Assembly (NCBI GenBank): GCA_040385525.1
Contig: JAZKHE010000004.1
Location: forward strand, 35,357 to 99,356
Source of the DNA: Bacteroidota bacterium
GTDB lineage: Bacteria; Bacteroidota; Bacteroidia; UBA4408
Direction: 5' to 3'
DNA: 64,000 nucleotides
This document shows, piece by piece, positions 24,937-60,686 of the stretch. Position 1 is the stretch's first letter. Every line of letters begins with the position of its first letter. The translations under genes and the position numbers were made by a program. A model generated the notes under the pieces. The model ran no database searches and was not told where the DNA came from. It saw nothing but the letters and a program-made list of their open reading frames with translations.

Positions 24937-24966
24937 AAAAAAGCTCCTCATTTCTGAGAAGCTTTT
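24937..24966. terminator. Putative bidirectional intrinsic terminator hairpin at the island boundary.
   Basis: AAAAGCTCCTCA-TTTC-TGAGAAGCTTTT, a ~12-bp stem with one mismatch. T-run on the plus strand (TTTTG) and a longer one on the minus strand (TTTTTTGCTTTT). Confidence 0.45.
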
Positions 24967-24982
24967 GCGGTCCGGACGGGAC
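24967..24982. repeat. attR-like 16-bp direct repeat of the tRNA-Asp 3' end (GCGGTCCGGACGGGAC).
   Basis: Exact 16-mer match to 60611-60626, which is the 3' terminal 16 nt of tRNA-Asp (reverse complement). A GC-rich 16-mer in an AT-rich 64-kb window is very unlikely by chance. Confidence 0.7.
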
Positions 24983-25191
24983 ACCGCCAAAACCTCCAGA
25001 ACACTTGTATTTAGTAGTTTTTAATTTTTCAATTTTGCAAATTGTTAAACAATTGTGTTTTGATTAATAATATGACTTATTTTAATAAAAATTCGTTTTA
25101 TCATGCAAATCTATACTTTTTATTATAAAAACTCGCTATTCCGGTTAAAAACAGCGATTTATAAGACTTAAAGACCCTTTTGAATTTTCAA

Positions 25192-27264
25192 CTATGCTTT
25201 TATTGCATTTTCAAGCTCATTTATTTGGTTATTAATTACTGTTTCAAATTGAAAATAATCTTCTTTTTTAACAAACACATCATTTTTTACCCAAGCATCT
25301 GAAGCAAAATCACAAATCATTTTTTTAATCTCTTTTTCTTCAATTCTTGAAAAAGAAGTTAAGTGTTGTGCCATTTTAAGCAGCAATAATTTGTTGCGTT
25401 TTAAAATTGTTTCAGCCTCTTGTTCACATTCGTAAATTAAGGTCATTACTTCTTCACTATGTATTGATTTATGCACGATAGCTAAATCATCATGCGTATG
25501 TGAAAATCGGATAAATACAGGGTCATTACCCATCCCATATTCTTTTATAGCGCGATTAGCCATTTCACTTATTTTTTCAATATCACTAGAAACACCAGAC
25601 GAAGTTTGTTCTTCCCCAAAAATAATTTTTTCAGCCACATATCCTCCTAAACCAATTATTATTTCTTTTTTTAGAATTTCACGCGTGAGTGGTCCCTCTG
25701 GCATATTCACCATACAAAAACCTTCAGCAGTTGCTGAAACAGTTTTAGAAACAACTAAAGAAGGAATAATACGTAGTGTTAATGCAGCCAAAATAGCATG
25801 ACCTGATTCATGAACAGCTGTATGAGCTTGCAAATTTTTATTGTTAATTTTTCGGAGTTCGCCTACTTTAAGCATAGGCTTTTCAACATAAGTATTAATT
25901 GTATTATTTGCATGATCTTTAAAAACAAAAATGAAATTTTCATCTACATAATCCCAATTTACAGAATTTGTTTCTAGTTTTTTTTCAATAATTTCTAAAA
26001 CTATTTTACTTATACTTCCTTCAATTACATTTTTAACCGTTGTGAAAATTGGCCTTGTACCTTGAGCTGGATAAACCCCCTCGCTGTAAACTACATCAAC
26101 AACATTTTCGCTAAAATTAATTTCAAAATTGAAATATTCTTTTACATATATGTTTATTGCATTTAGTTTTTGGGTAATGATATCTCTAAAATTTTGATTG
26201 GTAAAAGAACGAAAGATGATATGATTATTTCCCAAACGGGCAATTTGTTCGTTTCGAAATCTTTCTTGAAGAGCTTTTTTTATATGCGCTACATTTATTT
26301 TTAGAGTTGCTTCATTCAATTCATCAGCACTAATATCTGGATTCATACTATGACTCATATAGTAAGCCTCATCTAAATTTCCTAAAACAAAAATAAGTCC
26401 TCTAGACAAATCCAATTGTTTAATAGCGGTTCTTTTGTTCATGCCTTCTATTAGCAAACGTTGAATGCCTTTTAAATCTGTATTTTCAATAATCTCCTTT
26501 AATTTGTTTCTAGTTATAGATAGATCATTATATAAATAGAAAACTCCATCAATAAAATCATTAGAAAGAAAATAATTGCTATTTACACTCTCTCCATTTC
26601 TATTAGCATTCTCAAAATAAAAATCGCTAAATGTATTTAAAAATTCACTTTCACTATTTATTACAACTCCATCTCTGATACCAACTCCTTTATCTTCGCA
26701 TTTAAGCAAATAAACCAGACAAATTTCTGCACGCACAACGTAGTAAGAATTATGATAAGGTATGTAATTCACTTTACCACTATCAAGTAAATCCCATATT
26801 ACTCTTAATTTATCTTTTCCTAATTCATTACCTTCTTTGTTTATCGTTCTCGCAAACTGAAATTCATCAAAACAAATTATACCCGGCTGCTCATGGAAAA
26901 ATTCTAGGTCATCAGTAAACATTCCTTTTATCCACGAAGCCGAATCTGATTCAAATTCACCCATATCCATTTGAACATATAAACGCTTGTAATCCAATAA
27001 TTCAACCATTTTGTTTACTAAAGCAGTTTTTCCAGATCCGGTTAAACCCCACATATTAATTACTGTTGGTCTTAGTTGAGCGTCAGGAAAAAGATACCAC
27101 GGTGTTATTAAATTAATTACTTCATCAATAATATTATTTAGTCCAATAAATTCTTTTTTCAAAGTTTTTTGTACTTCGTTTAATCTTTGTTTCTTTAAAA
27201 CTATATTATCGTATATATCGATTTTATTCATATTATTTTTTCTTTGTAAACTTTGATCCTTCAT
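25192..27264 (-). CDS. Cytoplasmic P-loop ATPase fused to an FtsH-like M41 zinc-metallopeptidase domain. No transmembrane segment.
   Basis: Walker A GLTGSGKT and Walker B ICFDEFQ in the N-terminal half. C-terminal HESGHAIL (HExxH) and the third-ligand region [40 protein letters not shown] match the FtsH protease domain. Its start overlaps the 3' end of prfH by 32 nt. Confidence 0.65.
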
Positions 27265-27862
27265 AAATTCTTTTAGGATTTCCGCGTTCGAGTAAGTTAT
27301 GATTATTCCACAGTTTATATTGCTCTTCCATTGCTTGATGTAATTGCCATTTAGTATACTCTTCTTGTAATTTTAATGCAGCAATTTTTTTATTCTGTAA
27401 TTGTGAACGGCTCTCATTTATAGTAATCTGTATTCCAGAGGAAATGTGTTTAGCTCTTACAGCCGTTTCCACTTTATTTACATTTTGACCTCCAGGGCCC
27501 GAAGAACGCATAGTTTGATATACAATATCCTTTTCATTCCATGGTGGGAGGTCTATTAAATTAATATTGTAAATTCCAATGAACCAGTTTTTTCGTTTAT
27601 GCAATTTTCTATATGGGCTTTGATTGATCCAGAGTAAAACACCTGTCCATGAATTTATAAAACTATCTACATTTTTACCTTTCAATTTAATAGATACAGA
27701 AGAATAAGTACCTTCTTCAATTCCTTTAGTTTGTTCAATTATTTCATACATCAATTTTAACTCATTTGCTTCTTTTAGCAATTCATTTAAAGCTAACGCA
27801 ACTGCCTTACAGCATTCTGAAGGGCCTTTTCCCGATGTTATTTGTATAATTTTTGTGTCCAT
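27233..27862 (-). CDS. prfH: Peptide chain release factor homolog PrfH (RF-H).
   Basis: 209 aa with GGQ motif ([16 protein letters not shown]). N-terminal ...[17 protein letters not shown] typical of PrfH. It lies immediately downstream of an rtcB, the classic rtcB-prfH pairing. Confidence 0.75.
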
Positions 27863-27904
27863 TTTTTTAAAATTAAGAGGCTGTTTAATTACAACCTCTT
27901 TTGT

Positions 27905-29308
27905 TTAACTTTTATTCATCCTTACTATTCTTGGCGTAAACGAGCCTTCAACATTAACGAGGCCGGATTGATTACTCATAACTGTTTCAATATCTTTATA
28001 AGCTAATGAAGATTCTTGGACACTACCACCAATTAATTTAACCTTGTGTTGATCAAGAGTTACGTTCATTTGTGATTTTGTTATTTTTTCACTTGCTTCT
28101 CTTCTCGACATTTTTCTTCCAGCTCCATGTGAAGCAGAGTTCAATGAACCTGAAGCTCCAACACCACTAACAATATAGCCTTTACTCGTCATACTACCCG
28201 GAATGATCCCCAATTCACCTTTAGCAGCAGGGGTAGCTCCTTTTCTGTGCACTATTAATTCTTGCCCATCGTGGATTTCTTTCCATGCAAAATTGTGATG
28301 GTTTTCAACTTTACAAATGGCTTTTAAACCCATAAAACGTTCTAGATTATTATGAATTACATCGTGGCAAGCTTTAGCATAGTCGCCTGCTAAATTCATC
28401 GATAACCAATATTCTTGGCCAGCTTCGTCATCCATACTCAACCATGCCATAGAACGCATTTCTTTTGGAAGTTTACATTTTTCCATTGCAATTTTTGTGT
28501 AAATACCTGCAATAGTAGCTCCCATTCCTCTAGACCCGCTGTGCGATAATAAGCCAATGTATTTCCCTGCAGCAATTCCTAAAGCGTTATTTTCATTTAT
28601 TTCCACATCACCAAATTCAACAAAATGATTTCCTGTACCCGAAGAACCTAGCTGATAACGAGCTTTTCCATGCAATCTTTTAAGCAAATCGGTTGCTTTA
28701 AATTCCCGTCGTTCCAAAACTTCATGATCTACATCAAAATCAAGCGTACCATCATTACCAAAATGAGTACATCTACGTAAAGCTTTTTGCAAATCATACT
28801 CTTTTTTAAGAATATAATTTTCTGGCAATTCATAGATACTTAAAGCCATTCTGCATCCAATATCTAAGCCAACTCCAAAAGGAATTACAGCGTTGTTAAC
28901 AGCAAGTGCAGCTCCAATTGGTAAACCATAACCATGGTGCGCATCAGGCATTAAAGCTCCTTTAACCGATACAGGTAAACGCATCGCTGCTTCCATTTGA
29001 AGAATAGCATTTTGACCAATAAGACGTTGACCGTAAATAGTAAAATCGCCAGTGTTTTTAAGCACATGAACTTCGTAACTGGTTTTAATTTTTGGCTTAC
29101 CACATAACTCATCTGATAAGGGTTTCAAAAATTCGTGTTCCAAATATTGTTCAGGATCTAAAAGAACGTTATTAATTATTTCTAATTTTTCATCTATCGA
29201 AAAGTGTTTATAGTTTTTCGACATAATATTTATAGCCACACTTTTGGCTATATCTGATGGGAAATCAAATTTTCTAAGATGCTTTCCCGTTATGAGATTT
29301 TTTCCCAT
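27905..29308 (-). CDS. rtcB: RtcB-family RNA 3'-phosphate ligase (paralog B, PrfH-associated).
   Basis: 467 aa. RtcB motifs GNHFVEFG, HSGSRGMG, SASHGAGRKMSR. Confidence 0.8.
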   Translation of the reverse strand: MGKNLITGKHLRKFDFPSDIAKSVAINIMSKNYKHFSIDEKLEIINNVLLDPEQYLEHEFLKPLSDELCGKPKIKTSYEVHVLKNTGDFTIYGQRLIGQNAILQMEAAMRLPVSVKGALMPDAHHGYGLPIGAALAVNNAVIPFGVGLDIGCRMALSIYELPENYILKKEYDLQKALRRCTHFGNDGTLDFDVDHEVLERREFKATDLLKRLHGKARYQLGSSGTGNHFVEFGDVEINENNALGIAAGKYIGLLSHSGSRGMGATIAGIYTKIAMEKCKLPKEMRSMAWLSMDDEAGQEYWLSMNLAGDYAKACHDVIHNNLERFMGLKAICKVENHHNFAWKEIHDGQELIVHRKGATPAAKGELGIIPGSMTSKGYIVSGVGASGSLNSASHGAGRKMSRREASEKITKSQMNVTLDQHKVKLIGGSVQESSLAYKDIETVMSNQSGLVNVEGSFTPRIVRMNKS

Positions 29309-29490
29309 GATATTTTTTAAATTTTATGGGCATGATTTTTCCTTTACAGTTTTTTTAATGCAAAGGATAAGTTCATAAAACGCATAGCATTTTTACCCTG
29401 TTTTTTTTTATAAAATGATTTTTTGGTTTCCGGATTTTTCTGTCTCCCCAGAATTTTATTTGTTTTTAGTTTATTTTGAAAAAATAAAAC

Positions 29491-29520
29491 AAATAAAAAA
29501 GCCCGGCATTAAACCGGGCT
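29491..29520 (-). terminator. Rho-independent terminator downstream of rtcB paralog A.
   Basis: Minus-strand reading: GCCCGGTTTAATGCCGGGC hairpin (6-bp GC-rich stem) followed by TTTTTTATTTG. Confidence 0.6.
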
Positions 29521-29909
29521 GAATATATTGATATTAGCAGCTTTTCGGCTTAAAACGTCGTATGTGAATTTGCTACTAACATAATTTCTTTTCTTTTTTT
29601 GGTTGGTGTTTTTTAATAAATCTGTCACAAATGTAAATCAAAAAATTGATTTGTCAAGTACAAAATATTTTTTTTTGCGTTAAAATTATTTCATTTATTT
29701 TTTTTAACCTTCAGAAGCATTGTAAAAAAAGGTGTTATAGAGGTTAATTAAAATGATTATAAATTTACCAAAGTCAAAAAAATTAAACAAAGTTTTTGTT
29801 GAGCTATCAGTTATAAAACAGAATAGGGTTTCAACCTAGATCCTTCAATTTGTCAATAGACAGACGACGATCAACCGAAGTGTCTCTATTCATGTCACTT
29901 TTGAATACT

Positions 29910-31331
29910 TTAATCTTCTCTGCTGCCATCATCTGCCATACGAACAATTTTAGGAGTAAATTTTGCAACTACATCAATTAGGTCTTTTTGTGAAGCCATA
30001 ACAGTTTCTATATTTTTATAAGCCATCGGTGCTTCATCTAAACCAGCACCAATTAATGTTACACCATGATCCTTTAGTACTTTTCTCATTTCGTCTTTAG
30101 AAATATTTTTAATTGCTTGTGTTCTACTCATTTGTCGACCTGCACCGTGTGATGCTGAATTAATTGCATTTGCTTCACCTTTACCTCTTACTAAAAAACC
30201 AGGGGCTGTCATTGATCCAGGTATAATACCCATTACATCTTTAGAAGCAGGAGTAGCACCTTTTCTATGAACAATTACTTCTTCTCCGTTCCACATCTCC
30301 TTCCAAGCAAAATTATGATGGTTCTCTACTTTAGCCAATACTTCTGCACCAATAGCTTTAGCTAAACGATTGTGAATTATTTCATGACAAGCTGATGCAT
30401 AATCACCAGCTAAATTCATTGCCATCCAATACTCTTGTCCTTCAGCAGAATTCATATCTAAGTAAGCTAAATTTGCTGCTTCTTTAGGAAGTTTACAAAT
30501 TTCTTTCGCTACTTTGGTATAATATCCTGCTATTGTTGCACCAAATCCTCTTGATCCCGAATGTGTTAACAACGCTAAGTATTTTCCTTTTTTGATATTT
30601 AATTTTTCATCATCATTTTCAAATTCAATAATTCCAAATTCTACAAAGTGATTTCCGCCACCTGAAGAACCTAATTGTTCAACAGCTTTTTGTTGAAGAT
30701 TTTTTACAAACGGTGTCATATTAAACTCTGTTCTATCTAATATTGAATGCTCAGCTCTATATTTACCATGCCATCCAGCGCCAGCGCCAAATTTAGTCCA
30801 GGCAATTAACTCTCTTTTATATTTGCTTTCATTCTCTATAAAATGATTCTCATTAATATCATAGATGGACAAAGCCATTCTACAACCAATATCAACGCCT
30901 ACACCATAAGGAATAATAGCGTTTTTTGTAGCCAATACTCCACCAATTGGTAAACCATACCCTTGATGAGCATCAGGCATTAAAGCACCAGCAACTGTTA
31001 CGGGCAATTTCATGGCTATTTCCATTTGATTAATTGCGCCTTGCTCAATGTTTTCTGAACCAAAAATAGAATAAAACATTCCTTGCTCTTTTAATGCAAC
31101 AGTAGCATCTTCATTTGGTTTTTCAATTAATTTTTGAGCAATAGCTTCAAGAACTTCGTCGTCTAAAAAGTTCTCTGGATATTGAACTACCTTAGTTAAA
31201 ATTGCGATTACTTCCTCTTTCTCTAATTCAGCATAATTTTGCTCAACTACTTTAATGGCTATTCCAATTACTTTTCCTTCAGGATAACCTAAAGCTTTTA
31301 ATTCAGCTCCTGATACGTTAACTATTTTCAT
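29910..31331 (-). CDS. rtcB: RtcB-family RNA ligase (paralog A).
   Basis: 473 aa. GGGNHFVEFG, HSGSRGFG, SASHGAGRQMSR. Roughly 50-55% identical to paralog B by eye. Monocistronic: an operator-like palindrome lies upstream and a terminator downstream. Confidence 0.8.
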   Translation of the reverse strand: MKIVNVSGAELKALGYPEGKVIGIAIKVVEQNYAELEKEEVIAILTKVVQYPENFLDDEVLEAIAQKLIEKPNEDATVALKEQGMFYSIFGSENIEQGAINQMEIAMKLPVTVAGALMPDAHQGYGLPIGGVLATKNAIIPYGVGVDIGCRMALSIYDINENHFIENESKYKRELIAWTKFGAGAGWHGKYRAEHSILDRTEFNMTPFVKNLQQKAVEQLGSSGGGNHFVEFGIIEFENDDEKLNIKKGKYLALLTHSGSRGFGATIAGYYTKVAKEICKLPKEAANLAYLDMNSAEGQEYWMAMNLAGDYASACHEIIHNRLAKAIGAEVLAKVENHHNFAWKEMWNGEEVIVHRKGATPASKDVMGIIPGSMTAPGFLVRGKGEANAINSASHGAGRQMSRTQAIKNISKDEMRKVLKDHGVTLIGAGLDEAPMAYKNIETVMASQKDLIDVVAKFTPKIVRMADDGSRED

Positions 31332-31418
31332 CTTGTTTTTTTTAATTATGATACAAAATAAATACTAAACTACGCAGTCAAATTGCGCAGTTGATTTTTT
31401 TTCATTTTTTTTTAAAAT

Positions 31419-31440
31419 CCCTCGCCCAAATTGACGAGGG
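31419..31440 (-). terminator. Possible terminator hairpin after the SPFH gene.
   Basis: CCCTCG-cccaaattga-CGAGGG hairpin 10 nt after the stop. Only a short U-run (AUUUUA) follows on the minus strand. Confidence 0.3.
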
Positions 31441-31450
31441 ATGCTACAAT

Positions 31451-32551
31451 TTATTTACCTGGAACAAATATCTGTTTTAACTGATCCACTAAATGAGTTC
31501 CTCCTGACAATGAAATATTATTAATTTTCTCTGCAATCTTCTCTACATATTCCATTTCTTTCAATTTAAACAACATAGTGTTTTCTTCCATCAATTTAGC
31601 AGTATTCAATAAACTTCTAGTTGAAGCAGTTTCTTCTCTTCTCATGATGGTATTAGCTTGAGCCTTTTTCTCCGCAACTAATACTTGATTCATAATATCT
31701 TTCATATCTCCTGGCAAAATTATATCTCTGATACCACTTCCTTTCAATACTACTCCCAAAGATTCTACTTTTTCAGACATCGACTCCATAACATAAGCTG
31801 AAATAGATTCTTTTTTTTCTAACAACTCATCTAATGTTAATGAACCTATGAACTCTCTCAAAGCTAATTGCAACAGTACATATAGTTGTTTATCATACTC
31901 CTTGTTATTTACTAACGCCTTAACAATATCTTTTATATTGTATTGAGCATAGAAATTAACTCTTAGTGCTGCTTTGTCTTTTGTCAAAATCTCTTGTCCA
32001 GCAATTTCCATTTGCATAGTTCTTAAATCAGCTCTTGAAATCACAATAGAAGTGCTATTCTTCCAAAAGTTGTAAGTACCTGACTCCATGATTTTATGAA
32101 ATTTACCATCAACATACATCACTGCTTTTTCATGTGCTTCAACTACAAAGTTCCTCACAAATGGGGCGATTTCTTTTTTAGTCAATAAAGATTTATCGAT
32201 GTCATTATCAATTTCAATTTGATTTAAATCAATGATATTAAAATTGTAATTTATCAAGCCTTTCCAAAAAATGTATCTACCAGCATTTAATACAGTAGTA
32301 AATAATCCATTTTCGTATTGTAAAGCAATTTCATTATTTTTTACTTCAACAATCAAAGTTGCATTTAGAAAATCTTCATTTTTTAATAAGATATTTATAT
32401 TAACTGGCGCTATTAATGGTTTTGACATATCACAGTCAAATACAACCATAGTTGGCCACAACCAATATGTACCTTCGTTTAAAACTTTTACCAAATTATC
32501 ATTTTTAAACACTAAGCCTTTTTTCCAGGCATTTATTTTTACTCTTTTCAT
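31451..32551 (-). CDS. SPFH/band-7 (stomatin/HflKC-like) domain protein, apparently without a TM anchor.
   Basis: SPFH core ...TKDKAALRVNFYAQYNIKD...LDELLEKKESISAYV...GVVLKGSGIRDIILPGDMKDIMNQVLVAEKKAQANTIMRREETA. N-terminal triple repeat of a GTYxFW hairpin motif. Confidence 0.6.
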   Translation of the reverse strand: MKRVKINAWKKGLVFKNDNLVKVLNEGTYWLWPTMVVFDCDMSKPLIAPVNINILLKNEDFLNATLIVEVKNNEIALQYENGLFTTVLNAGRYIFWKGLINYNFNIIDLNQIEIDNDIDKSLLTKKEIAPFVRNFVVEAHEKAVMYVDGKFHKIMESGTYNFWKNSTSIVISRADLRTMQMEIAGQEILTKDKAALRVNFYAQYNIKDIVKALVNNKEYDKQLYVLLQLALREFIGSLTLDELLEKKESISAYVMESMSEKVESLGVVLKGSGIRDIILPGDMKDIMNQVLVAEKKAQANTIMRREETASTRSLLNTAKLMEENTMLFKLKEMEYVEKIAEKINNISLSGGTHLVDQLKQIFVPGK

Positions 32552-32869: not shown

Positions 32870-33011
32870 CCACTGAAACCACAATTCAGCGCTCTAACCA
32901 ACTGAGCTATTCCAATTTTGAGCTGGAAGCAGGATTCGAACCTGCGCTTTGAGGTTGCTGCTCTACCAACTGAGCTATTCGCTATTAACGAAATGGGAAT
33001 CGAACCCATGA
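32870..33011 (-). pseudogene. Cluster of degenerate tRNA-like fragments: a 5'-truncated tRNA-His(GTG)-like piece, a related 5'-truncated piece fused to an unrelated T-arm/acceptor, and an isolated T-arm+acceptor 3' piece.
   Basis: Minus-strand reads GGAATAGCTCAGTTGGTTAGAGCGCTGAATTGTGGTTTCAGTGG (D-arm plus anticodon arm, loop TTGTGGT gives GTG), GCGAATAGCTCAGTTGGTAGAGCAGCAACCTCAAAG|CGCAGGTTCGAATCCTGCTTCCAGC, and CATGGGTTCGATTCCCATTTCGTTAA. None folds into a complete cloverleaf. ORF 32848-33072 is spurious. Confidence 0.5.
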
Positions 33012-33403
33012 CACACAACGTGAGACACACAAAATAATTACGCAGAATACAAGCAATCAAAGATTGTTGCACTATGGGGAAAGGAAACCCTCATCTTGGC
33101 GCAAAAATTTATTTATGCATCATTCTCCTCTTTTCAGAGAAGATTTTTAATCCTGATTTTCAGGAAATATTTTCAAGGAACTTTATTACTTTAAATCAAC
33201 GATGCAAATTTTATACTCATGTACGCAGTCGAATTGCGTACTAAAATTATTTTTAAATAGTTTATCAATTTAAAATGTAAATGACTGGTTTTCAACAAGA
33301 AAAAATCACTAGTAATTAGGTTAATTTTAAATCTACGCAAATACAATGCGTAGATGATTAATAAATAGTATATTTACGTTAACTAATTTTTCAAAACTTC
33401 AAT

Positions 33404-34417
33404 ATGCCAATTAATAAATTAGCTTTAGTTAGATACAAAACAATAGATAATTGTTTGCAAAATCGTTTTAGAAAATGGACATTAGAAGACTTAATGGAAG
33501 CCTGTTCTGATGCGATTTATGAATATGAAGGAATTACAAATGGAGTAAGCAAACGCACTATACAACTAGATATTCAGAACATGCGCAGTGAAAAACTAGG
33601 ATATAATGCCCCTATTATAGTTACAGATAAAAAATATTATAGCTATGAAGAAAAGAATTATAGTATTACTAATATTCCTTTAACACAACAAGATTTAAGC
33701 ACCTTGAATGAAGTACTTGATGTATTAAAACAATTTAAAGGTTTTGGTTATTTCCAAGAATTAAACGGAATGGTTACTCGTTTAGAAGATAAACTTTATA
33801 AACAACAACATAGAGGCAAGTCATATATTGATTTCGAAAAAAACGAATTATTAAAAGGATTAATACATATTGATGCACTACATAAAGCAATTATTAATAA
33901 GAAAACAATTGAAGTAACTTATCAATCATTTAAAGCAAAGCTTCCACAGCAAATTGTATTTTATCCCTATTTATTAAAAGAATACCGCAATAGGTGGTTT
34001 ATTTTAGGTGCAAATAAAAATGGAAAAACAATAATGATATTAGCATTAGATAGAATAGAAAAATTTAAAGAATTAAATTCTGAAAAATATCACAAATCAG
34101 AATTTGATGTTAATACTTATTTTAATGATGTAATTGGTGTTTCAAAAATGCCCACCCAGAAGCCACAACTTATTGTTATGAAAATAATTAAAGAGCATGC
34201 TCCATATATAATTACAAAACCCATGCATAGTTCACAAAAAATTTTGAGTGAAGATTCTGAAGGAGTTATCTTTTCAATTGAAGTTATTTGGAATTTTGAG
34301 CTGGAAAGAGAAATTCTTGGCTTTGCTGAACATTTAAAAATAGTTAGTCCTAAAAGATTATCAGGAAGAATACAATCACGAATGAAGAATACACTCACAA
34401 AATATCAAATGGAATAA
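33404..34417 (+). CDS. WYL-domain transcriptional regulator (HTH_11 + WYL; BrxR/CapW-like architecture).
   Basis: N-terminal HTH (GVSKRTIQLDIQNM). WYL hallmark YRNRWFILGANKNGKTIMILALDRIEKF. Two palindromic TACGCA-N7-TGCGTA sites lie upstream. Confidence 0.65.
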   Translation: MPINKLALVRYKTIDNCLQNRFRKWTLEDLMEACSDAIYEYEGITNGVSKRTIQLDIQNMRSEKLGYNAPIIVTDKKYYSYEEKNYSITNIPLTQQDLSTLNEVLDVLKQFKGFGYFQELNGMVTRLEDKLYKQQHRGKSYIDFEKNELLKGLIHIDALHKAIINKKTIEVTYQSFKAKLPQQIVFYPYLLKEYRNRWFILGANKNGKTIMILALDRIEKFKELNSEKYHKSEFDVNTYFNDVIGVSKMPTQKPQLIVMKIIKEHAPYIITKPMHSSQKILSEDSEGVIFSIEVIWNFELEREILGFAEHLKIVSPKRLSGRIQSRMKNTLTKYQME

Positions 34418-40887: not shown

Positions 40888-43800
40888 TTAAACTCTTAAC
40901 ATCCTTTTTAAAGTATCTTGCATTGCAATTCTAAACGCATCGTCTTTTGCTAATAAGCGATATAATTCCAGTTCGTTTTTACGTTCAGAAGAAACTACAT
41001 CCTCAAATATTTTCATAAAGGCAATGCCTTTATTTTGTTCATCCATGTTTTCTTCAAACTTAGTTTTGAAATCAGGATGAGATTGTATTTTACTGGCAAG
41101 GCTTACAAACTTAACACGTTGTTCTTCTGGTGTTATACTCCAGCCTTGAAACCAACGTTCGTTAAAGCTCTTAATAATTAAATCTAATTGGTCTTCCTCT
41201 GAATCGCTACCATGTGCACTTCGTGGATTTGGATTTTGTGGGTCTAATTCAGTTTCAGTTGAATCTAATCCAATGTGTGCATTTAATTTAACTCGTTCTA
41301 ACCCATAGGTTGATAAATCAACTGAATTTAATAATTCGTCTAATGCATCTGAATTGCGGTCAATGATAACTAATTTTGGAATTAAGAATTTTAAAAACCA
41401 AAAAAGCTTTTCCCATTTTAAAACTTCATAAGGCAATATTGAGGCCATTTGTCCGTAAATCTTCACAAACTGCTTGGCTTTAATTTTATAATCTGCTTTT
41501 ACCTTGTCTTCTAATTCGAGTTGATTGTTAAATCTATCGGCTGCAATATCAATTATGGGACTTAATTGCTCAGCATTAACTCCTTTAAAATATTTCTCTA
41601 CAAAATCTTCTACCTCGCTCCATTCATAAACGCCTGCATCATCTAAATGTGTTTTTAATTCATGTAATACATTAACGTCAGTTGCTTTACTTAATGTGGT
41701 TGATGTATAAAATGGATCAAAGGCTTGTTTAATATCTTCGGTTGCATTAAAGAAATCGAGTACAAATAAATCTTCCGTTTTTTTCCCTAGTTTATCTGCT
41801 GCACGGTTTAATCGTGATAGAGCTTGAACAGCTAAAACACCTTGTAGTTTTTTATCTACATACATGGCGGTTAGCTTTGGTTGATCGAATCCTGTTAAAT
41901 ATTTATTGGCAACAACTAACACTTTATAGTCATCTTCATCAAATTTATCTCGTGTATCTTTTTCTGCAAAACCATTTAAACTATCTTCCGTGTACTCAAT
42001 ACCATTAACCAGTTTTGAGCCCGAAAAAGCAATAGCAGCCTTAAATGGATTTCCTTTTTCATTTAATATTTCTTGAATAGCTTTAAAGTAATGAATAGCG
42101 GATTCTATACTTTGAGTAATAACCATCGCTTTTGCCTTACCTTTTAATTTTTTGGTATTTACTATTTTGGAAATAAAATGATCCATCATAATATCTGCTT
42201 TGGTAGCAATGGTATCTTTATTTCGCTCAACAAAAGCACGTAATTTTTTTTGAGCTTTAGAGGTATCAAATAATGGGTTTTCAGAAATAGATTTTTCTAT
42301 TTCATAGTAGCTTCTATAAGTTGTATAATTTGCTAATACATCTAAAATAAAACCTTCTTCAATCGCTTGTTTCATTGAATATAAGTGGAAAGGCTTGTAC
42401 TTACCATCTTCTTGTTTTACTCCAAATTTTTCAAGTGTTATGTTTTTAGGTGTTGCTGTAAAGGCAAAATATGAGGCATTAGTACTCATTTTGCGATTAT
42501 GCATTGCCTCAATAATTTTATCTTGAGCATCTGTTTCTTCTTCATCGCCAGTACTTGAAATAGCACGATTCATATTATCTGCTGCTGAACCACTCTGTGA
42601 ACTATGAGCTTCATCAATAATAACTGCAAAGCGCTTATCACTTAAATCGGCGATACCATCTACAATGAATGGAAATTTTTGAATGGTAGTAATGATGATT
42701 CGTTTACCACTTTCTAAACTTTCTTTTAATTCTTTTGATGAGTAAGCTGGAGCCACAATGTTTTTTACTTCAGAAAACTCTTTAATATTTTCTCTTAATT
42801 GCTTATCCAATAATCTTCTATCAGTAACAATAATTACTGAATCAAATAATGGATTTGATACTCCTTTACTTCCAGGAACGGTATTGTTGATTGGATACGT
42901 TTCAATTAATTGATAGGCTGCCCATGTAATTGAATTGGATTTACCTGAACCTGCAGAGTGCTGTATTAAATACGTTTGACCTAATCCATTTTCGCTTGCA
43001 TGATTTATTAAACGCCTTACTACATCCATTTGATGGTAACGAGGGAAATATAAACTCTTTTTATTTAAAGCATCTGTTTCTTTTCCATCAAAGCGAACAA
43101 AGTGTTGAATAATATTTGCTACACTTTGACGTGTTAATACTTCATCCCACAAATAACTTGTTTTATGACCAAATGGATTTGGGGGATTTCCTTTACCAAA
43201 GTTGTGACCTAAATTAAATGGTAAAAAGAATGTATTACCTCCATCTAATTTAGTTGTCATATATACCTCGTCGGTATCAACTGCAAAATGGACTAAGCAT
43301 CTGCCAAATTGCAATAATGGTTGTGTTATATCTCGTTTAAACTTGTATTGGTTTTGACCATGTACCTTGGCATTTTGACCTGTCCATTGATTTTTTAATT
43401 CAACAGTGCTAAATGGTATACCATTAATAAATAATACCATGTCAATTTCTTCGCCTTTATTAACTTCTGAATAACGAATTTGGCGTGTAACACTAAATTC
43501 ATTTTTATCAAAATTATCTTTAACTGTTTGACTACTGCTTGCTAGAGGCAATTGATATAATAACGTGAAGTGAGCGTCATCCACTTCTAATCCTTTACGC
43601 AACAAACGAATGATGCCGTATTTTTTAATTAAACGATCTAAACGTTCGAGTATCTTTAATTTCCAATCACTTTGTTTTTGTAGTTTAAGTAATTCTTCTT
43701 TTTGAGTAGTTTCTAGAAAATGCCAAAAGCGGTTTTCATCAATGGCAAATTGTGGATTAAAATCTTTGGCTTCACCTAAATAATAACCATTACCACTACG

Positions 43801-43926
43801 ATAGAGTTCTGCTCTTTCGGCAAAAGCATTTACTACCCCTAAAGCTTTTAATTCTTCAAGAGTTGTACCTGTTAATTTTTTTTCAATTACAGCTTCAAGA
43901 GCTTGTTCGTTGGTTTGACTAGTCAT
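40888..43926 (-). CDS. hsdR: Type I restriction enzyme R subunit (HsdR).
   Basis: 1012 aa. Walker A GSGKSNSI. DEAH box VIIDEAHSSQSG. Helicase C domain. C-terminal HsdR-specific region. Confidence 0.85.
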   Translation of the reverse strand: MTSQTNEQALEAVIEKKLTGTTLEELKALGVVNAFAERAELYRSGNGYYLGEAKDFNPQFAIDENRFWHFLETTQKEELLKLQKQSDWKLKILERLDRLIKKYGIIRLLRKGLEVDDAHFTLLYQLPLASSSQTVKDNFDKNEFSVTRQIRYSEVNKGEEIDMVLFINGIPFSTVELKNQWTGQNAKVHGQNQYKFKRDITQPLLQFGRCLVHFAVDTDEVYMTTKLDGGNTFFLPFNLGHNFGKGNPPNPFGHKTSYLWDEVLTRQSVANIIQHFVRFDGKETDALNKKSLYFPRYHQMDVVRRLINHASENGLGQTYLIQHSAGSGKSNSITWAAYQLIETYPINNTVPGSKGVSNPLFDSVIIVTDRRLLDKQLRENIKEFSEVKNIVAPAYSSKELKESLESGKRIIITTIQKFPFIVDGIADLSDKRFAVIIDEAHSSQSGSAADNMNRAISSTGDEEETDAQDKIIEAMHNRKMSTNASYFAFTATPKNITLEKFGVKQEDGKYKPFHLYSMKQAIEEGFILDVLANYTTYRSYYEIEKSISENPLFDTSKAQKKLRAFVERNKDTIATKADIMMDHFISKIVNTKKLKGKAKAMVITQSIESAIHYFKAIQEILNEKGNPFKAAIAFSGSKLVNGIEYTEDSLNGFAEKDTRDKFDEDDYKVLVVANKYLTGFDQPKLTAMYVDKKLQGVLAVQALSRLNRAADKLGKKTEDLFVLDFFNATEDIKQAFDPFYTSTTLSKATDVNVLHELKTHLDDAGVYEWSEVEDFVEKYFKGVNAEQLSPIIDIAADRFNNQLELEDKVKADYKIKAKQFVKIYGQMASILPYEVLKWEKLFWFLKFLIPKLVIIDRNSDALDELLNSVDLSTYGLERVKLNAHIGLDSTETELDPQNPNPRSAHGSDSEEDQLDLIIKSFNERWFQGWSITPEEQRVKFVSLASKIQSHPDFKTKFEENMDEQNKGIAFMKIFEDVVSSERKNELELYRLLAKDDAFRIAMQDTLKRMLRV

Positions 43927-43931
43927 TTAAA

Positions 43932-44666
43932 TTAATTAATCAATTTGTTTATAATATCATGAGCTTTTTTAATATCAGCTGTTTGATCATTTTCGTTTTT
44001 GTATCCTATTTTACCAACATATACATTGTTATTATGTTCGGTGAAATAAACCCTTAGTGCGGTTGGTAAATAAACTCTCAATTCATAAACAGAGCATTCA
44101 TATTTATTTGGTGTTACATCCTTGACTATTTTGGTGTCAGGATAATATTTTGTTTTTAAATTTCGAGCCTTAGCTTTTTCAAAATCTTCAATAATAGATA
44201 CTTGCTCTTGAGGAGTTAATGTGTTAAATTCTTTTTCAAATTCCGATGAAATGAAAGCCTTTTCTAATGTCACTTTAAGTTTTTCATAAGTTGATGAACC
44301 AGCATAACACCATTCTTTATATGTGGAATCATTTATTATCTGTTTATCAGGACTAATAACACTTCCTGTGAAATTTATTCCAAGAAAAGCATATTTTTTT
44401 CCGTTAGTTTGTAAAATAGCACTTTCATCGTTATTTATATAGTTGCTTACTGAAGAAAGCTTACCAATGAATTTTATTATTTCTTGTACTTCTTGTCCAT
44501 TATTAGCAAATAGTTCAACATAGTATTCTAATTCATAAACGGATTCATGCTTACAAAAATCATCCTCCTTCTTTCTATCAATTGTTATTAGTTCACTCAT
44601 ACCTTCTTTGAAATCAGAAAAATTACCCTTAGTTAAAGTTTCATTTATTAAAAACAAGTGGCTCAT
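43932..44666 (-). CDS. Hypothetical protein, third gene of the embedded DUF262-ATPase cassette.
   Basis: 244 aa, no recognisable motif. Start overlaps the ATPase stop by 4 nt. Confidence 0.45.
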   Translation of the reverse strand: MSHLFLINETLTKGNFSDFKEGMSELITIDRKKEDDFCKHESVYELEYYVELFANNGQEVQEIIKFIGKLSSVSNYINNDESAILQTNGKKYAFLGINFTGSVISPDKQIINDSTYKEWCYAGSSTYEKLKVTLEKAFISSEFEKEFNTLTPQEQVSIIEDFEKAKARNLKTKYYPDTKIVKDVTPNKYECSVYELRVYLPTALRVYFTEHNNNVYVGKIGYKNENDQTADIKKAHDIINKLIN

Positions 44667-45817
44667 GACTTTCTCATTTTAAATAATTCAGCAAAATCAT
44701 TTTGACTTTGGTCAAAAAATCCTTTTGGCCATTTTGATAACTCTCCTTTTTCTGAAATAGAAATAGATTCAACATTTGGCTGCTTGTCGCCTTCTTCCTG
44801 ACTAAAAAAGTTTATGGTTACTTGTTCAGGTTGTATATCTTTTTTTGCTGTTGCTATTTGGATGCCATTTATTACATGATCGCTATGAGTTTCGACAATC
44901 ACATTAACACCTGATTTAGCTACCATTGCTAAAAACTGACCAATTTTTGATTGTGCTGAAGGATGCAAATGTGCTTCTGGATTTTCAACAATCATGATAC
45001 TATCCTTTTTAGCAATTAAACCAGTTACAATTATTGGCAATACATAACTTATACCAAAACCAATATTTGTTGCAATTGTGCTATTTCCTTTGGTATATAT
45101 ATTATCAACTCGTATTTGTGCTGAATGTGTTTGAGGCTCGTAAAACGCAGAAATTGAAACACCAGGCATTAATTCATTTAACCAAGCATTTACCTGTTGC
45201 TCAAGTCTTTTACTTTTAGAGGAAGTGTGTCTTCTTTCATTTTCAACTTCAAACTTGTAATTAGATTCAGTATCTGAAATTAATTGAGCAACGAATTCAC
45301 CTTGATAACCGGCATTGGGATAATCATAAAATTTAATTCCTTGATTTATTCTTGGTCCAATTCTTTCAGCATTTAAATAATAAAACTCTTGCATAAATAA
45401 TGATTTTGTCATTGGCATATCATTATGGACTTCAACTGGTTTTAACCATAGATTAATTTCGTCGTTTATATCGTAAACAACTTGAAATGATTCGGGTAAA
45501 TTTTTAATATTATTATATATCGTAATAGCAGAAAAATCTGGAGATGTATTTTTAGGTATTATTAAATCACTTGTTCCTAGAGCTAAGCAATACGAACCAT
45601 TTAGTTCAACATTTAAACCGTTCGGTTCATGAAAAAGATATTGTTCGATGTTTTTTTCCCAAACTGAACAATGTTCAACTGTTCTTCTCAAAAAAAGCAA
45701 TGCCTGAATGACAGTACTTTTACCGCCCCCATTTGCGCCAGTTAAAATAGTTAATTGATTTAAAGGAATGTTTTTATTAGTAAAACACTTAAAATTTTCT
45801 ATTTGAATATTCGTCAT
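44663..45817 (-). CDS. ABC/SMC-like AAA_15/AAA_21-family ATPase (DUF3696-type, abortive-infection/defence-associated).
   Basis: Walker A TGANGGGKST. Signature ENPEAHLHP (D-loop/H-loop region typical of this defence ATPase family). 384 aa. Confidence 0.65.
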   Translation of the reverse strand: MTNIQIENFKCFTNKNIPLNQLTILTGANGGGKSTVIQALLFLRRTVEHCSVWEKNIEQYLFHEPNGLNVELNGSYCLALGTSDLIIPKNTSPDFSAITIYNNIKNLPESFQVVYDINDEINLWLKPVEVHNDMPMTKSLFMQEFYYLNAERIGPRINQGIKFYDYPNAGYQGEFVAQLISDTESNYKFEVENERRHTSSKSKRLEQQVNAWLNELMPGVSISAFYEPQTHSAQIRVDNIYTKGNSTIATNIGFGISYVLPIIVTGLIAKKDSIMIVENPEAHLHPSAQSKIGQFLAMVAKSGVNVIVETHSDHVINGIQIATAKKDIQPEQVTINFFSQEEGDKQPNVESISISEKGELSKWPKGFFDQSQNDFAELFKMRKS

Positions 45818-47214: not shown

Positions 47215-47238
47215 AATTAATATTCCTATTTAAATATA

Positions 47239-55571: not shown

Positions 55572-55786
55572 TAACCTCTTATCGCTGAAGAAATAATAAT
55601 TCCAATTGCTAAAATAAATGCAGCAGCAATAATAGCTAGTGCCTTATTTTGTTTTTCAAAAATTTCTTTTCTAATATTTTCAGGTGTTATTACTTCAATT
55701 ATCCAAAAAGCGAACAATAGAATCAAAATTCCTAAAATAGAGTATACAACGGCAGTGCCAATGTATTGTAAATGTAGTGCTTCCAT
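55571..55786 (-). CDS. DUF350-family small membrane protein.
   Basis: 71 aa, two TM helices (MEALHLQYIGTAVVYSILGILILLFAFWIIE...). DUF350 is commonly found next to SpeE-like genes. Confidence 0.5.
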   Translation of the reverse strand: MEALHLQYIGTAVVYSILGILILLFAFWIIEVITPENIRKEIFEKQNKALAIIAAAFILAIGIIISSAIRG

Positions 55787-55804
55787 ATTAAATTTATTTA
55801 TTAA

Positions 55805-56008
55805 TTATTTATGATAATGCGTATTTGTTCTTTCTCTAGAATGGCTAGATTCATTAAAACTTAAAAATCTCCATCCAACAATCATTGAATAGATATATAT
55901 TAAAATTAATATCAAACAAAATATTAAATAATATTTAAGTGCTTTTATATCTTCTAAATCAATCTTCATAAGGAGAATAGTTACTATTATACCATCTATT
56001 TTCTTCAA
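55805..56008 (-). CDS. Possible small membrane protein (uncertain; overlaps the upstream gene by 50 nt).
   Basis: 67-aa ORF with one hydrophobic helix. May be a spurious ORF. Confidence 0.2.
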   Translation of the reverse strand: MKKIDGIIVTILLMKIDLEDIKALKYYLIFCLILILIYIYSMIVGWRFLSFNESSHSRERTNTHYHK

Positions 56009-57221: not shown

Positions 57222-57222
57222 G

Positions 57223-59304: not shown

Positions 59305-60492
59305 TTAGCTAGCTTTTTTTACCTGACTCCTATTATTCAACTTATCCATTTCATTAAACAAAACAGAGTCAATTATTTTAGCATAAATTTGGGTTACTTT
59401 CAAATCTTTATGACCTAGTATTTTACTTACAATGTGAATTGGAATACCTTTAGCAATTGCAATCACTGCAAAAGTATGACGACTACAGTGAAATGTAATT
59501 TGCTTTTTAACGCCAGCTTTTTCAATAATTTTTTCAAGCTGCCTATTTACAACTTGATTAGTTGCCACCTTAAACACTTTACTATCACTTTTATTAGATA
59601 AATCTATTAATTCTTTAGCAGAATCAATTAAAGGAATTCTTACTTGCTCTTTTGTTTTGTGCATTATTATTACAATTAAGTTATCTTTTATATCACTATA
59701 GCGCAAATTCTTTATATCTGTGTAGCGCAATCCAGTGTAACAACAAAATAAAAAATACTTTAAAACATATTTTTGAGCTTGAGAAATATCAGAATGCAAC
59801 AAATTTTCCAAATCAATTAACTCTTTTTCGTTGCAATAATCTCTGTAAGTTGATTCTGTTTTTAACTTGTAGTTTTCAAAAACTTCATTTTGAGTTAAAC
59901 CTTGTGCTTTAGCTCTATTCACAAAATTCCTAATAAAGCGCATAGATTTATGTATGGTGTTTGTTTTATTACCTAATTTATCCCGCATATGTGCAGCATA
60001 CGCATTTAAAAAAGGAATCGTAATGTCATTAAACGATAAATTAGGGCTAAACTTTTTTAATTTGCTAGAATCACATTTTATTGTGTGAGATGAACTTACT
60101 GAATTATGCTTAGTTGTTTTATTTGCTTCAAGTTCATTATCAACAAAATCAAAGAAATTAATTACTTTTTTTTGTTTAAACTCATTTTCAAAATCATAAA
60201 ACGTTAATGATTTACGACTTACTGCATAAGAAAAAAGTATTTCCTCAGCTTTGTTAGTTGCAGACTTTATGAGTAGATTTTTCTCATCAGTTGTTTCACA
60301 ATTTTTGGACTTAATGTGAAACATTTTTTCATCCCAATCTTTTTCCTGACAAGAAACATTTAATGAATAAAGTTTTATTTGTCTGTTGATTGTTAATCTC
60401 AGGTAAATTGGATGTTCACCATTTTTCTTTTTAAAATCCTTTCTAAGGACTGGTTTTACTGTTGTTGCCATTTGTTTTACATTGTAAAACAA
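59305..60492 (-). CDS. int: Tyrosine-type site-specific integrase (Bacteroidetes CTn/phage-integrase family).
   Basis: C-terminal catalytic region HCSRHTFAVIAIAKG...ILGHKDLKVTQIYAKI (R..H..R..Y). Possible start at the internal MATTVKPV (60471). Adjacent to the tRNA-Asp 3' end. Confidence 0.85.
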   Translation of the reverse strand: MFYNVKQMATTVKPVLRKDFKKKNGEHPIYLRLTINRQIKLYSLNVSCQEKDWDEKMFHIKSKNCETTDEKNLLIKSATNKAEEILFSYAVSRKSLTFYDFENEFKQKKVINFFDFVDNELEANKTTKHNSVSSSHTIKCDSSKLKKFSPNLSFNDITIPFLNAYAAHMRDKLGNKTNTIHKSMRFIRNFVNRAKAQGLTQNEVFENYKLKTESTYRDYCNEKELIDLENLLHSDISQAQKYVLKYFLFCCYTGLRYTDIKNLRYSDIKDNLIVIIMHKTKEQVRIPLIDSAKELIDLSNKSDSKVFKVATNQVVNRQLEKIIEKAGVKKQITFHCSRHTFAVIAIAKGIPIHIVSKILGHKDLKVTQIYAKIIDSVLFNEMDKLNNRSQVKKAS

Positions 60493-60610: not shown

Positions 60611-60626
60611 AGCGGTCCGGACGGGA
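60611..60626. repeat. attL core: 16-bp direct repeat overlapping the tRNA-Asp 3' end.
   Basis: GCGGTCCGGACGGGAC, identical to 24967-24982. Confidence 0.7.
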
Positions 60627-60686
60627 CTCGAACCCGCGACCTCCGCCGTGACAGGGCGGCATTCTAACCAACTGAACTACCGGACC
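60612..60686 (-). tRNA. tRNA-Asp (anticodon GTC).
   Basis: Minus strand GGTCCGGTAGTTCAGTTGGTTAGAATGCCGCCCTGTCACGGCGGAGGTCGCGGGTTCGAGTCCCGTCCGGACCG. Cloverleaf with anticodon loop CTGTCAC. Confidence 0.9.

Follow-up and report, generated by a model that had tools for sequence, protein, structure and literature searches.

The genomic window considered here, a 64,000-nucleotide stretch from a Bacteroidota bacterium of the UBA4408 lineage (contig JAZKHE010000004.1, positions 35,357 to 99,356), carries on its minus strand, between positions 25192 and 32551, five co-oriented open reading frames, located just as an earlier, sequence-only reading had given them. They encode an SPFH/Band_7 protein, two RtcB RNA ligases (RtcB-A and RtcB-B), the GGQ protein PrfH, and a 690-aa protein in which an AAA+ ATPase is followed by a zinc peptidase of family M41 (here called ATPase-M41). 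The five genes are two juxtaposed modules and not one system, and ATPase-M41 is a genuine conserved partner of rtcB, with or without prfH. From its sequence and its neighbors, the protein is most likely the proteolytic arm of a pathway for the rescue of damaged ribosomes and tRNAs. For the locus as a whole, an even chance is given to its being cargo of an island at a tRNA-Asp gene, comprising two separately controlled RNA-damage response modules in which the protease extends the RtcB2-PrfH pair.

The evidence for the partnership comes from the family to which the protease belongs. At least 1730 homologs of the 690-aa protein, mostly of about 680 aa and unnamed, were found by a word-indexed search, and an exhaustive profile search gathered about 1000 clusters at 50% identity (E up to 1e-30). 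Eighty species-level GTDB loci were annotated with the proteins of the window, 71 of which had enough upstream DNA for the neighborhood to be read. The gene immediately upstream of the protease is prfH in 19 of the 71, in the order rtcB-prfH-protease, and rtcB itself, with no prfH, in another 20. The co-localization with rtcB(-prfH) supposed by the sequence-only reading is therefore found in 39 of the 71 species-level loci, where the protease gene lies directly downstream of rtcB-B(-prfH) on the same strand, with spacers of 1-40 nt and at identities down to about 47%. Cultured species are among the carriers of the form with rtcB-B and the protease, for example Ohtaekwangia koreensis DSM 25262 (L041) and Chryseosolibacter histidini (L031). 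Five further loci have upstream of the protease a divergent WYL gene, a palindrome, a YrlA-like module, and a tRNA; the other 27, mostly the most distant relatives, have none of these within 10 kb. No other neighbor family of ATPase-M41 was conserved across the surveyed loci.

The two RtcB lineages keep fixed partners. An RtcB upstream of prfH or of the M41 gene is always B-type, and an RtcB adjacent to SPFH is always A-type, the A-type enzyme adjoining SPFH or, in relatives, Ro60. These fixed partnerships indicate two modules standing side by side, both in the window and in L002 (related loci are designated by L numbers), and the proposal that all five genes form a single system has accordingly been given up: SPFH goes with A-type RtcB, the YrlA-like RNA, and the WYL operator, and the protease with B-type RtcB. 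The first module consists of a divergent WYL regulator, a shared palindromic operator, a tandem YrlA-like tRNA-mimic RNA, SPFH, and RtcB-A; the second of a conserved leader (promoter, 10-codon mini-ORF, and terminator), RtcB-B, PrfH, and ATPase-M41. Elsewhere the two are separated by RlaP nucleotidyltransferases or by unrelated genes. Profile searches confirmed each of the domain assignments made beforehand (SPFH/Band_7, RtcB twice, PrfH, and M41). No membrane segment was found in any of the six proteins of the locus, and a PADLOC scan of the locus matched nothing except WYL.

The C terminus of the 690-aa protein matches Peptidase_M41 over residues 477-648 (E 3e-22; PF01434 at 79.9 bits against a gathering score of 29.9), with HExxH and a downstream Asp ligand, as the sequence-only reading had expected; ClpB_D2-small is also matched, and AAA matches are weak. 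Its motifs comprise Walker A (residues 73-80), Walker B (131-135), sensor-2 GTRP (402-405), HESGH (485-489), and D561. The AAA+ module holds an insert of about 110 aa (residues 165-280) and is followed by the ClpB_D2-small lid and then by the M41 peptidase. Across 65 representatives, with identities down to 27%, G73, T75, G76, G78, K79, D133, E134, N296, R404, H485, E486, and D561 are invariant, as is sensor-1, and H489 is at least 90% conserved. This invariance of catalytic residues argues that the ATPase and protease activities are both under selection.

The description of this protein as an ATPase fused to an FtsH-type peptidase is correct for its intact M41 C terminus but not for its ATPase, which is Clp/Hsp100-D2-like rather than FtsH-like. 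The C-terminal third aligns with the peptidase domains of YME1 and FtsH (E 6e-20), and the ATPase part aligns with D2 of ClpB, ClpC, and Hsp104 through the helix before Walker A, Walker A itself, a DMSEF-like segment, FRxE...R, the GxRP sensor-2, and the D2-small lid. An AlphaFold model (predicted local distance difference test score 76) likewise matches FtsH, YME1, and AFG3L2 over the whole chain, and ClpC, ClpB, and Skd3 over the ATPase part. The FtsH equivalog TIGR01241 scored 68.9 bits against a cutoff of 600, with the peptidase part alone aligning; no N-terminal transmembrane helices were found in the protein, and its ATPase matched the D2 domains of ClpB, ClpC, and Hsp104 instead of an AAA module of the classical clade, with its aromatic pore loop. 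The protein is thus predicted to be soluble and without a transmembrane part, its highest 19-residue hydropathy (1.68) falling within the peptidase domain and its N terminus being polar and helical. Relative to ClpB D2, the stretch from the DMxEF segment to Walker B appears to be 11 residues shorter, a difference that would delete the GYVG pore loop. HMMER alignments of the ATPase end at DMGEFES, and the segment that follows is not conserved family-wide.

PrfH scores 234.8 bits with the equivalog TIGR03072 (cutoff 166.65), carries GGQ, and aligns to RF2 over residues of about 112-291 only, with no N-terminal GTPase-interacting domain. It is closest to CgPrfH (9mor, 231 aa; residues 1-206, E 5e-58). 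Because the alignment breaks off at residue 206 of the 231 and the window protein itself is only 209 residues long, the basic tail of CgPrfH, which permits rescue of non-stop ribosomes as well (PMC12829566), is absent, and the protein falls outside the PrfH-CT subfamily, whose members have 225-250 aa and a basic C-terminal tail of about 25 aa (Tian et al. 2026). All protease-linked PrfHs are short-tailed, unlike the PrfH-CT form reported for most Flavobacteriia. RtcB-B and prfH are co-oriented with a 42-nt spacer, an arrangement found also in at least 19 related loci.

Both ligases match RtcB (PF01139; E 2e-73 for RtcB-B and 3e-82 for RtcB-A, with a Pfam cutoff of 27 and paralog scores of 248.5 and 277.5 bits). 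They are 51% identical to each other and share MPDAH, DIGC, GNHF, HSGSRG, HHN, and SHGAGR, so that their catalytic motifs are intact. Neither reaches the 271.8-bit cutoff of TIGR03073, the prfH-associated RtcB family (140.1 bits for RtcB-B and 150.5 for RtcB-A). An N-terminal extension of about 95-105 residues is common to both paralogs, is absent from E. coli-type RtcB models, and gave no match in a Pfam search. At the junction with the protease gene, the conserved and probably true start is M12 (ATG at 27231-27229), which is invariant and is also the NCBI start (679 aa); with this start, a single nucleotide separates the two genes (TAAtATG). The 32-nt overlap of prfH with the ATPase gene noted earlier thus arises only with the longest open reading frame, although the genes are tightly linked all the same.

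The RtcB-B operon also has a leader. When about 350 nt upstream of B-type rtcB were aligned from 14 loci, a promoter, an ATG, a mini-ORF, a terminator, and hairpins were found to be conserved. The promoter reads TTGACA-16-TACATTTG in the window (29630-29657) and TTGACA-N16/17-TACATTTG across the alignment, its second box fitting the TAnnTTTG motif that we take to be the Bacteroidetes consensus. An invariant ATG opens the 10-codon mini-ORF (29550-29582), which encodes MLVANSHTTF* in the window and MLVVNLHTKP or, more generally, MLVxN(L/S)(H/N)TKP in the consensus, with a Lys-Pro-stop end in most loci; its length and frame are preserved through synonymous changes. An intrinsic terminator (29500-29520), invariant in the alignment, comes next, followed by further conserved hairpins before the rtcB start and by blocks in the 5' untranslated region such as TTCTGGGGAGnCAGAA...TCCGGAA. 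With a covariance model built on the leader, 19 loci show it ahead of the operon, at scores of 51-120 bits (109 bits in the window; 56-120 bits in 18 of its relatives). It is present in L003, which has no prfH, and in L016, where it directly precedes the ATPase-M41 gene alone; weak matches occur at the equivalent site in three prfH-less loci, with MLVLSSHI-type peptides. No Rfam family corresponds to it. With its conserved short open reading frame and subsequent intrinsic terminator upstream of an operon, the arrangement has the predicted form of a leader-peptide attenuator. The terminator that had been placed near 29491-29520 and assigned to RtcB-A is real, but it is part of this separately promoted and conserved RtcB-B leader and so is ruled out as the end of the RtcB-A transcript; that RtcB-A is monocistronic, as had been claimed, is therefore not established.

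These observations bear on whether any functional link exists. A general soluble quality-control protease that merely adjoins rtcB-prfH would be in keeping with the 27 loci that have no RNA-repair neighbor and with a family as large as about 1000 clusters. Such a coincidence is disfavored and highly improbable in view of same-strand adjacency with spacers of 1-40 nt in 39 species, of a leader common to the operon and to the protease, and of independent associations of the family with WYL and tRNA-like RNA and with an Rnl-type ligase.

In the preferred reading, module 2 would be the RtcB2-PrfH rescue-and-repair pathway for damaged ribosomes, to which a dedicated zinc protease, soluble and ATP-dependent, has been added. 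Abnormal behavior of ribosomes on the 10-codon leader ORF, which precedes the terminator, would turn the operon on, and a hexamer of ATPase-M41, co-expressed with RtcB-B and tied to it, may provide a protein-clearing step. The polypeptides cleared would be those resulting from or obstructing repair, either untagged truncated nascent chains or proteins that still cling to the damaged ribosome or tRNA. Of the candidate substrates, nascent chains or proteins bound at damaged translation complexes rank first, at something short of an even chance. The fuller picture of a Bacteroidota "release, degrade, religate" machine, with the protease physically coupled to RtcB-B and the leader peptide MLVxNxHTKP reporting ribosome malfunction, is more tentative. 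In favor of the preferred reading are the shared leader, the invariant active sites, the RtcB lineages with fixed partners, and the wealth of repair genes in relatives, whose loci also hold Ro60/TROVE in place of SPFH, RlaP, Thg1-like enzymes, Rnl-type ligases, and an HD-kinase and are the RNA-repair islands of comparative-genomics work.

Several points weigh against it. Contact of the protease with RtcB, PrfH, or the ribosome is putative. The 20 species with rtcB-B and the protease but no prfH indicate that the protease does not depend on PrfH-mediated release, and 27 loci, distant relatives for the most part, have no RNA-repair neighbor within 10 kb. Conversely, nine true PrfH loci recovered in a metagenome survey, in which the GGQ pattern was otherwise swamped by RF1/RF2, pair PrfH with RtcB and have no protease (in about five, the downstream DNA is long enough to tell), which makes the protease an accessory of one sublineage and not a core component. 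Five IMG/VR contigs of 84-413 kb encode ATPase-M41 relatives that are 32-33% identical, and repair genes were not detected up to 6 kb away from them. The canonical aromatic/GYVG pore loop appears, from the alignments, to be missing, which fits poorly with the processive threading of nascent chains. Together with the persistence of the protease beside RtcB-B where prfH is lacking, this also tells against the narrower proposal that the protease degrades what PrfH releases. Finally, the switch expected of an attenuator has an uncertain basis: a 9-bp alternative pairing can be drawn, but the candidate antiterminator, in which UUAAGCCGG would pair with CCGGUUUAA and the position of the ribosome would decide, gained no robust support, as constrained folding retained the terminator in almost all states, the pairing is weaker in the window, and RNAalifold on the leader alignment supports the terminator only.

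Some of the same facts suit the reading ranked second, in which the protease destroys the attacking nuclease, whether an imported colicin, a contact-dependent inhibition or type VI secretion RNase domain, or an anticodon nuclease of host or phage origin. PrfH and RtcB would then mend the damage while the protease removes its source, so that ligation is not futile. The partnership does follow the RNA ligase and not PrfH, as the 20 species without prfH illustrate; an absent pore loop could suit a specific target better than bulk unfolding; and the locus lies in an integrative island by restriction and defense genes. Moreover, relatives of ATPase-M41 occur in phage-like and IMG/VR contigs (L165-L167, 6001-9595, and L168-L172), and in one phage-like contig the gene lies about 400 nt upstream of a non-homologous RNA ligase of Rnl type that bears a PHA02142 OB domain, a combination that fits counter-defense by ligase and anti-nuclease; a search of INPHARED phages with a phage-like relative gave no match. 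Yet profile searches recognized no toxin-binding or immunity-like domain, one enzyme would have to recognize very diverse toxins, the tight gene coupling suggests a stoichiometric complex that toxin degradation would not need, and the E. coli RtcB2-PrfH pair guards against colicin E3 with no such protease (PMC9223846). Destruction of the nuclease is accordingly judged unlikely.

A regulatory role is considerably less probable. Upon an RNA-damage signal, the protease might cleave a repressor such as WYL, in the manner of the ImmA/ImmR or CapP/CapH pairs, or activate RtcB-B by trimming its roughly 100-aa N-terminal extension. Five loci in which the protease and a WYL gene diverge and no ligase is near would agree with this, as would a distant member (L162, 6001-10346) heading an apparent operon with an FtsK_gamma protein, a 134-aa open reading frame, DUF429, and WYL-WCX; the extension itself is present on both RtcB paralogs. 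However, A-type RtcB bears the same extension with no linked protease, in the window and the relatives nearest to it the protease operon is headed by a leader of its own and lacks a WYL operator, and the known repressor-cleaving metalloproteases are small and ATP-independent, unlike AAA+ fusions of 690 aa.

The preferred reading, with a protease added to RtcB2-PrfH, can be set against several characterized systems. RtcB2-PrfH is experimentally established in E. coli ATCC25922 and C. gingivalis (PMC9304027, PMC9223846, PMC13166195, PMC12829566). Its defining substrate is the 70S ribosome with 16S rRNA cleaved at A1493. PrfH enters the A site of a ribosome cut in the 16S decoding center and releases the peptide, and RtcB religates the rRNA after the subunits dissociate (PMC9304027, PMC9223846, PMC12829566). 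The window resembles this operon in having a GGQ-bearing PrfH, nearest to CgPrfH, immediately after RtcB. It differs in the added ATPase-M41 gene and the leader mini-ORF with its terminator, in an RtcB with an N-terminal extension of about 95 aa that falls below the TIGR03073 cutoff, and in a tail-less PrfH. With FtsH, YME1, and AFG3L2, AAA+ proteases whose partners are HflK/C or prohibitin, the window protein shares an M41 domain with HExxH and an Asp ligand, the order of ATPase and then peptidase, and the whole-chain fold; it departs from them in having no transmembrane or periplasmic part, a Clp/Hsp100-D2-like ATPase with a ClpB_D2-small lid and GxRP sensor-2, an insert of about 110 aa, and no recognizable pore loop. 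Eukaryotic ribosome-associated quality control follows similar logic in pairing the release-factor-like Vms1 with the AAA+ ATPase Cdc48 (PMC6514570), but this is an analogy only: the proteins are unrelated, no ubiquitin is involved, and the ATPase of the window is fused to a peptidase and linked to an RNA ligase.

Other likenesses concern RtcB and its RNAs. The association of Band-7, RtcB, and a tRNA-like RNA is attributed to Burroughs & Aravind 2016 (10.1101/312249), YrlA occasionally adjoins a Band-7 gene (10.1101/312249), and the SPFH gene PaFlo8 lies inside the P. aeruginosa rtc locus (PMC13086221). With these Band-7/SPFH-RtcB-tRNA-like RNA (b7a-tRNA/YrlA) systems the window shares a cytosolic Band_7 protein by RtcB and an upstream tRNA mimic; its RNA, however, is a tandem permuted YrlA-type pair below the Rfam gathering score, and its regulator is a WYL protein with a palindromic operator and not RtcR. 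The Salmonella Rsr(Ro60)-YrlA/YrlB-RtcBA operon also places a Y-like tRNA-mimic RNA by RtcB (PMC7790460; 10.1101/312249), and induction by RNA damage is expected of both it and the window module, but the window lacks Ro60 and RtcA and has WYL instead of the CARF-sigma54 regulator RtcR. In the Anabaena TrcR regulon, RtcB, a slipin/SPFH protein, an AAA ATPase, and a tRNA L-array are co-regulated or co-located (PMC10272220, PMC8421152), and relatives of the window locus similarly carry arrays of 5-11 tRNAs; there, by contrast, the regulator TrcR is a ribbon-helix-helix protein, the genes are dispersed, and no M41 fusion is reported.

The SPFH half of the locus is thus a known system, and the ATPase-M41 protein with the conserved leader is the new addition to the RtcB-PrfH pair. 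A 2019 list of RFH-RtcB accessories names a TPR protein, a Pol-beta nucleotidyltransferase, and Zn-ribbon/charged-helix proteins and no AAA+ or M41 protein (PMC6514570). A search of full-text literature returned no paper linking an M41 or AAA+ protease with RtcB or PrfH; Burroughs & Aravind 2016 lay outside this search, and an earlier mention there is possible.

The features of the locus and of the surrounding island, with the tRNA arrays of related loci, are collected below.

Table 1. Positions of features in the window and of tRNA arrays in related loci
Feature	Position	Strand	Basis or remark
Distal att-like direct repeat GCGGTCCGGACGGGAC	24967..24982		copy of tRNA-Asp 3' end
Terminator-like hairpin	25133..25157	-	downstream of ATPase-M41 gene
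ATPase-M41 protein, 690 aa	25192..27264	-	Pfam/TIGR profiles, structure model
PrfH, 209 aa, GGQ	27233..27862	-	TIGR03072 above cutoff
RtcB-B, B-type RNA ligase	27905..29308	-	Pfam RtcB
Structured 5' untranslated region of RtcB-B	29309..29495	-	upstream alignment
RtcB-B operon leader	29496..29657	-	alignment, covariance model
RtcB-A, A-type RNA ligase	29910..31331	-	Pfam RtcB
Palindromic operator TACGCAGTCAAATTGCGCA	31371..31389		between SPFH and RtcB-A
Cytosolic SPFH/Band_7 protein, 366 aa	31451..32551	-	Band_7
Two tandem YrlA-like permuted tRNA-like modules	32891..33017	-	Rfam YrlA, tRNA model
Two more operator copies	33222-33240 and 33334-33352		divergent WYL / YrlA-SPFH promoter region
WYL-WCX transcription regulator	33404..34417	+	divergent from YrlA-like RNA-SPFH unit
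Tyrosine integrase	59305..60492	-	Pfam Phage_integrase, SAM-like, Arm-DNA-binding
tRNA-Asp, integration target	60612..60686	-	adjoins integrase
tRNA arrays, related loci	L001 1156-1903; L004 3024-3865; L007 12738-13644; L008 18796-20227
tRNA arrays, related loci	L010 15374-16398; L011 13932-15034; also L013, L014, L015, L040, L080

Module 1 matches, by its predicted components, the known Band-7/RtcB/tRNA-like-RNA system. Its SPFH protein has a Band_7 domain (E 1e-29), preceded by about 130 N-terminal residues; the first 163 residues alone match Band_7 weakly in Pfam. From its stop to the start of RtcB-A is 119 nt, and the pairing recurs in L002, L019, L028, L031, and elsewhere. The suggestion that this protein is an HflK/C-type regulator of the protease, and with it an HflK/C-FtsH-like link between the two, was rejected: the hflK model scores 48.2 bits on it against a cutoff of 159.4 and no membrane segment is found, both proteins are predicted soluble, and SPFH tracks RtcB-A and the YrlA-like RNA, only 10 of 81 loci having it less than 10 kb from the protease.

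In the 850-nt gap between the SPFH gene and the WYL-WCX regulator, the Rfam YrlA model (RF02553) matches twice, at 46.2 and 30.7 bits, both under the gathering score of 69 and over model positions 23-86 only, the tRNA-like core; a tRNA model matches the same segment at 35.3 bits. Each module presents a T-arm, a closed acceptor-like hairpin, and a D-arm, an order that identifies it as a permuted tRNA. The same arrangement stands just upstream of SPFH in L002, L031, and L060. The T-stem and outer stem of these modules covary, and in 14 of 16 modules the acceptor-like stem is closed by 5-8 uninterrupted pairs of differing sequence. The window locus holds no Ro60/TROVE protein. The relative L001 has one, with Ro60 in place of SPFH as Burroughs & Aravind 2016, summarized in 10.1101/312249, proposes for alternative scaffolds. 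In that locus a motif of the approximate form GTGYCGTA...AGAKAYTTCG precedes the YrlA-like modules and flanks the tRNA array (near positions 1230, 1370, 1910, and 1975); it may belong to Ro-binding stems or to processing sites.

The 64-kb window holds three copies of the palindrome TRCGCA-N7-TGCGYA where 0.17 would be expected, all of them in this locus. One lies between SPFH and RtcB-A, so that the operator envisaged upstream of RtcB-A is present. In 22 related loci the palindrome is again found beside WYL genes and in front of A-type RtcB, and it is a putative WYL operator. The regulator itself exceeds the gathering scores of both of its domains (WYL 44.2 bits against 21.8; WCX 35.3 against 23.9), and a WYL gene is near the module in 18 related loci. 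In the mechanism envisaged for module 1, WYL would repress through the palindrome until an RNA-damage signal arrives, and SPFH with the tRNA mimic would serve as a scaffold or cofactor for RtcB-A.

The tRNA arrays of the relatives, each of 5-11 genes, adjoin WYL/RtcB genes and are often preceded by YrlA-like modules. They resemble the stress-induced, rtcB-linked tRNA L-arrays of cyanobacteria (PMC8421152). Recurring members are Gln-ttg, Leu-tag/taa, Ile-tat, Pro-tgg, Phe-gaa, Arg-acg, His-gtg, Tyr-gta, and Lys-ttt. The window has its two YrlA-like modules only and no such array.

Both modules ride on an integrative island. From the immediate flanks alone there seemed to be no island, a view overturned by an integrase beside tRNA-Asp and an exact 16-nt repeat at 24967-24982 and 60612-60627, equal to the 3' 16 nt of the tRNA, that brackets about 35.6 kb, including the locus; the mobile island proposed by the sequence-only reading is thus confirmed by the arrangement typical of tRNA-targeted elements, with the integrase by the tRNA and a repeat at the far boundary. 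The distal repeat lies 210 nt beyond the protease stop and is directly followed by a hairpin terminator (24939-24966), probably the displaced original terminator of the tRNA. The same island carries on its minus strand a defense cluster (40888-50915) with type I restriction-modification genes HsdR, HsdS, and HsdM, a 244-aa open reading frame, a GmrSD-type enzyme (45817-47214), and an AAA_15/AAA_21/DUF3696 ATPase (44663-45817), and then, at 51369-57873, an amine oxidase-like flavoprotein, a spermine/spermidine-synthase-domain protein, and two DUF4178 proteins. The position of the locus on such an island, next to restriction systems, speaks for a role in conflict between microbes.

Such a context invites the thought that the protease is a fail-safe or abortive effector that, when RNA damage goes unrepaired, degrades essential translation proteins and stops the cell. 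A parallel is the Lit protease, which cleaves EF-Tu; zinc metalloproteases that act on translation factors are known, and ATPase-M41 relatives occur in large viral contigs. But the protease shares one operon with pro-survival repair enzymes, has no partner antitoxin or sensor, and gave no match in PADLOC, so that this role is very unlikely, a little more so than the regulatory one.

To our knowledge, RtcB-PrfH is the sole pathway known to rescue and repair ribosomes cut by ribotoxins, and it has hitherto been studied as two genes. A conserved third component, with intact active sites, in at least 39 species and from a family of about 1000 clusters, suggests that protein removal is part of recovery from RNA damage. 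If the more tentative picture of a "release, degrade, religate" machine is true, the protease-bearing operon would represent, in bacteria, a counterpart of ribosome-associated quality control that is connected to RNA repair. ATPase-M41 is a testable candidate for the disposal of peptides and proteins at ribosomes beyond the service of transfer-messenger RNA, and the conserved leader peptide is a possible direct sensor of ribosome damage, so that the RtcB-B-PrfH-protease operon with its leader is a good experimental lead. In the neighboring module, the WYL operator and the tandem tRNA mimic offer handles on the regulation of the poorly understood SPFH-RtcB systems.

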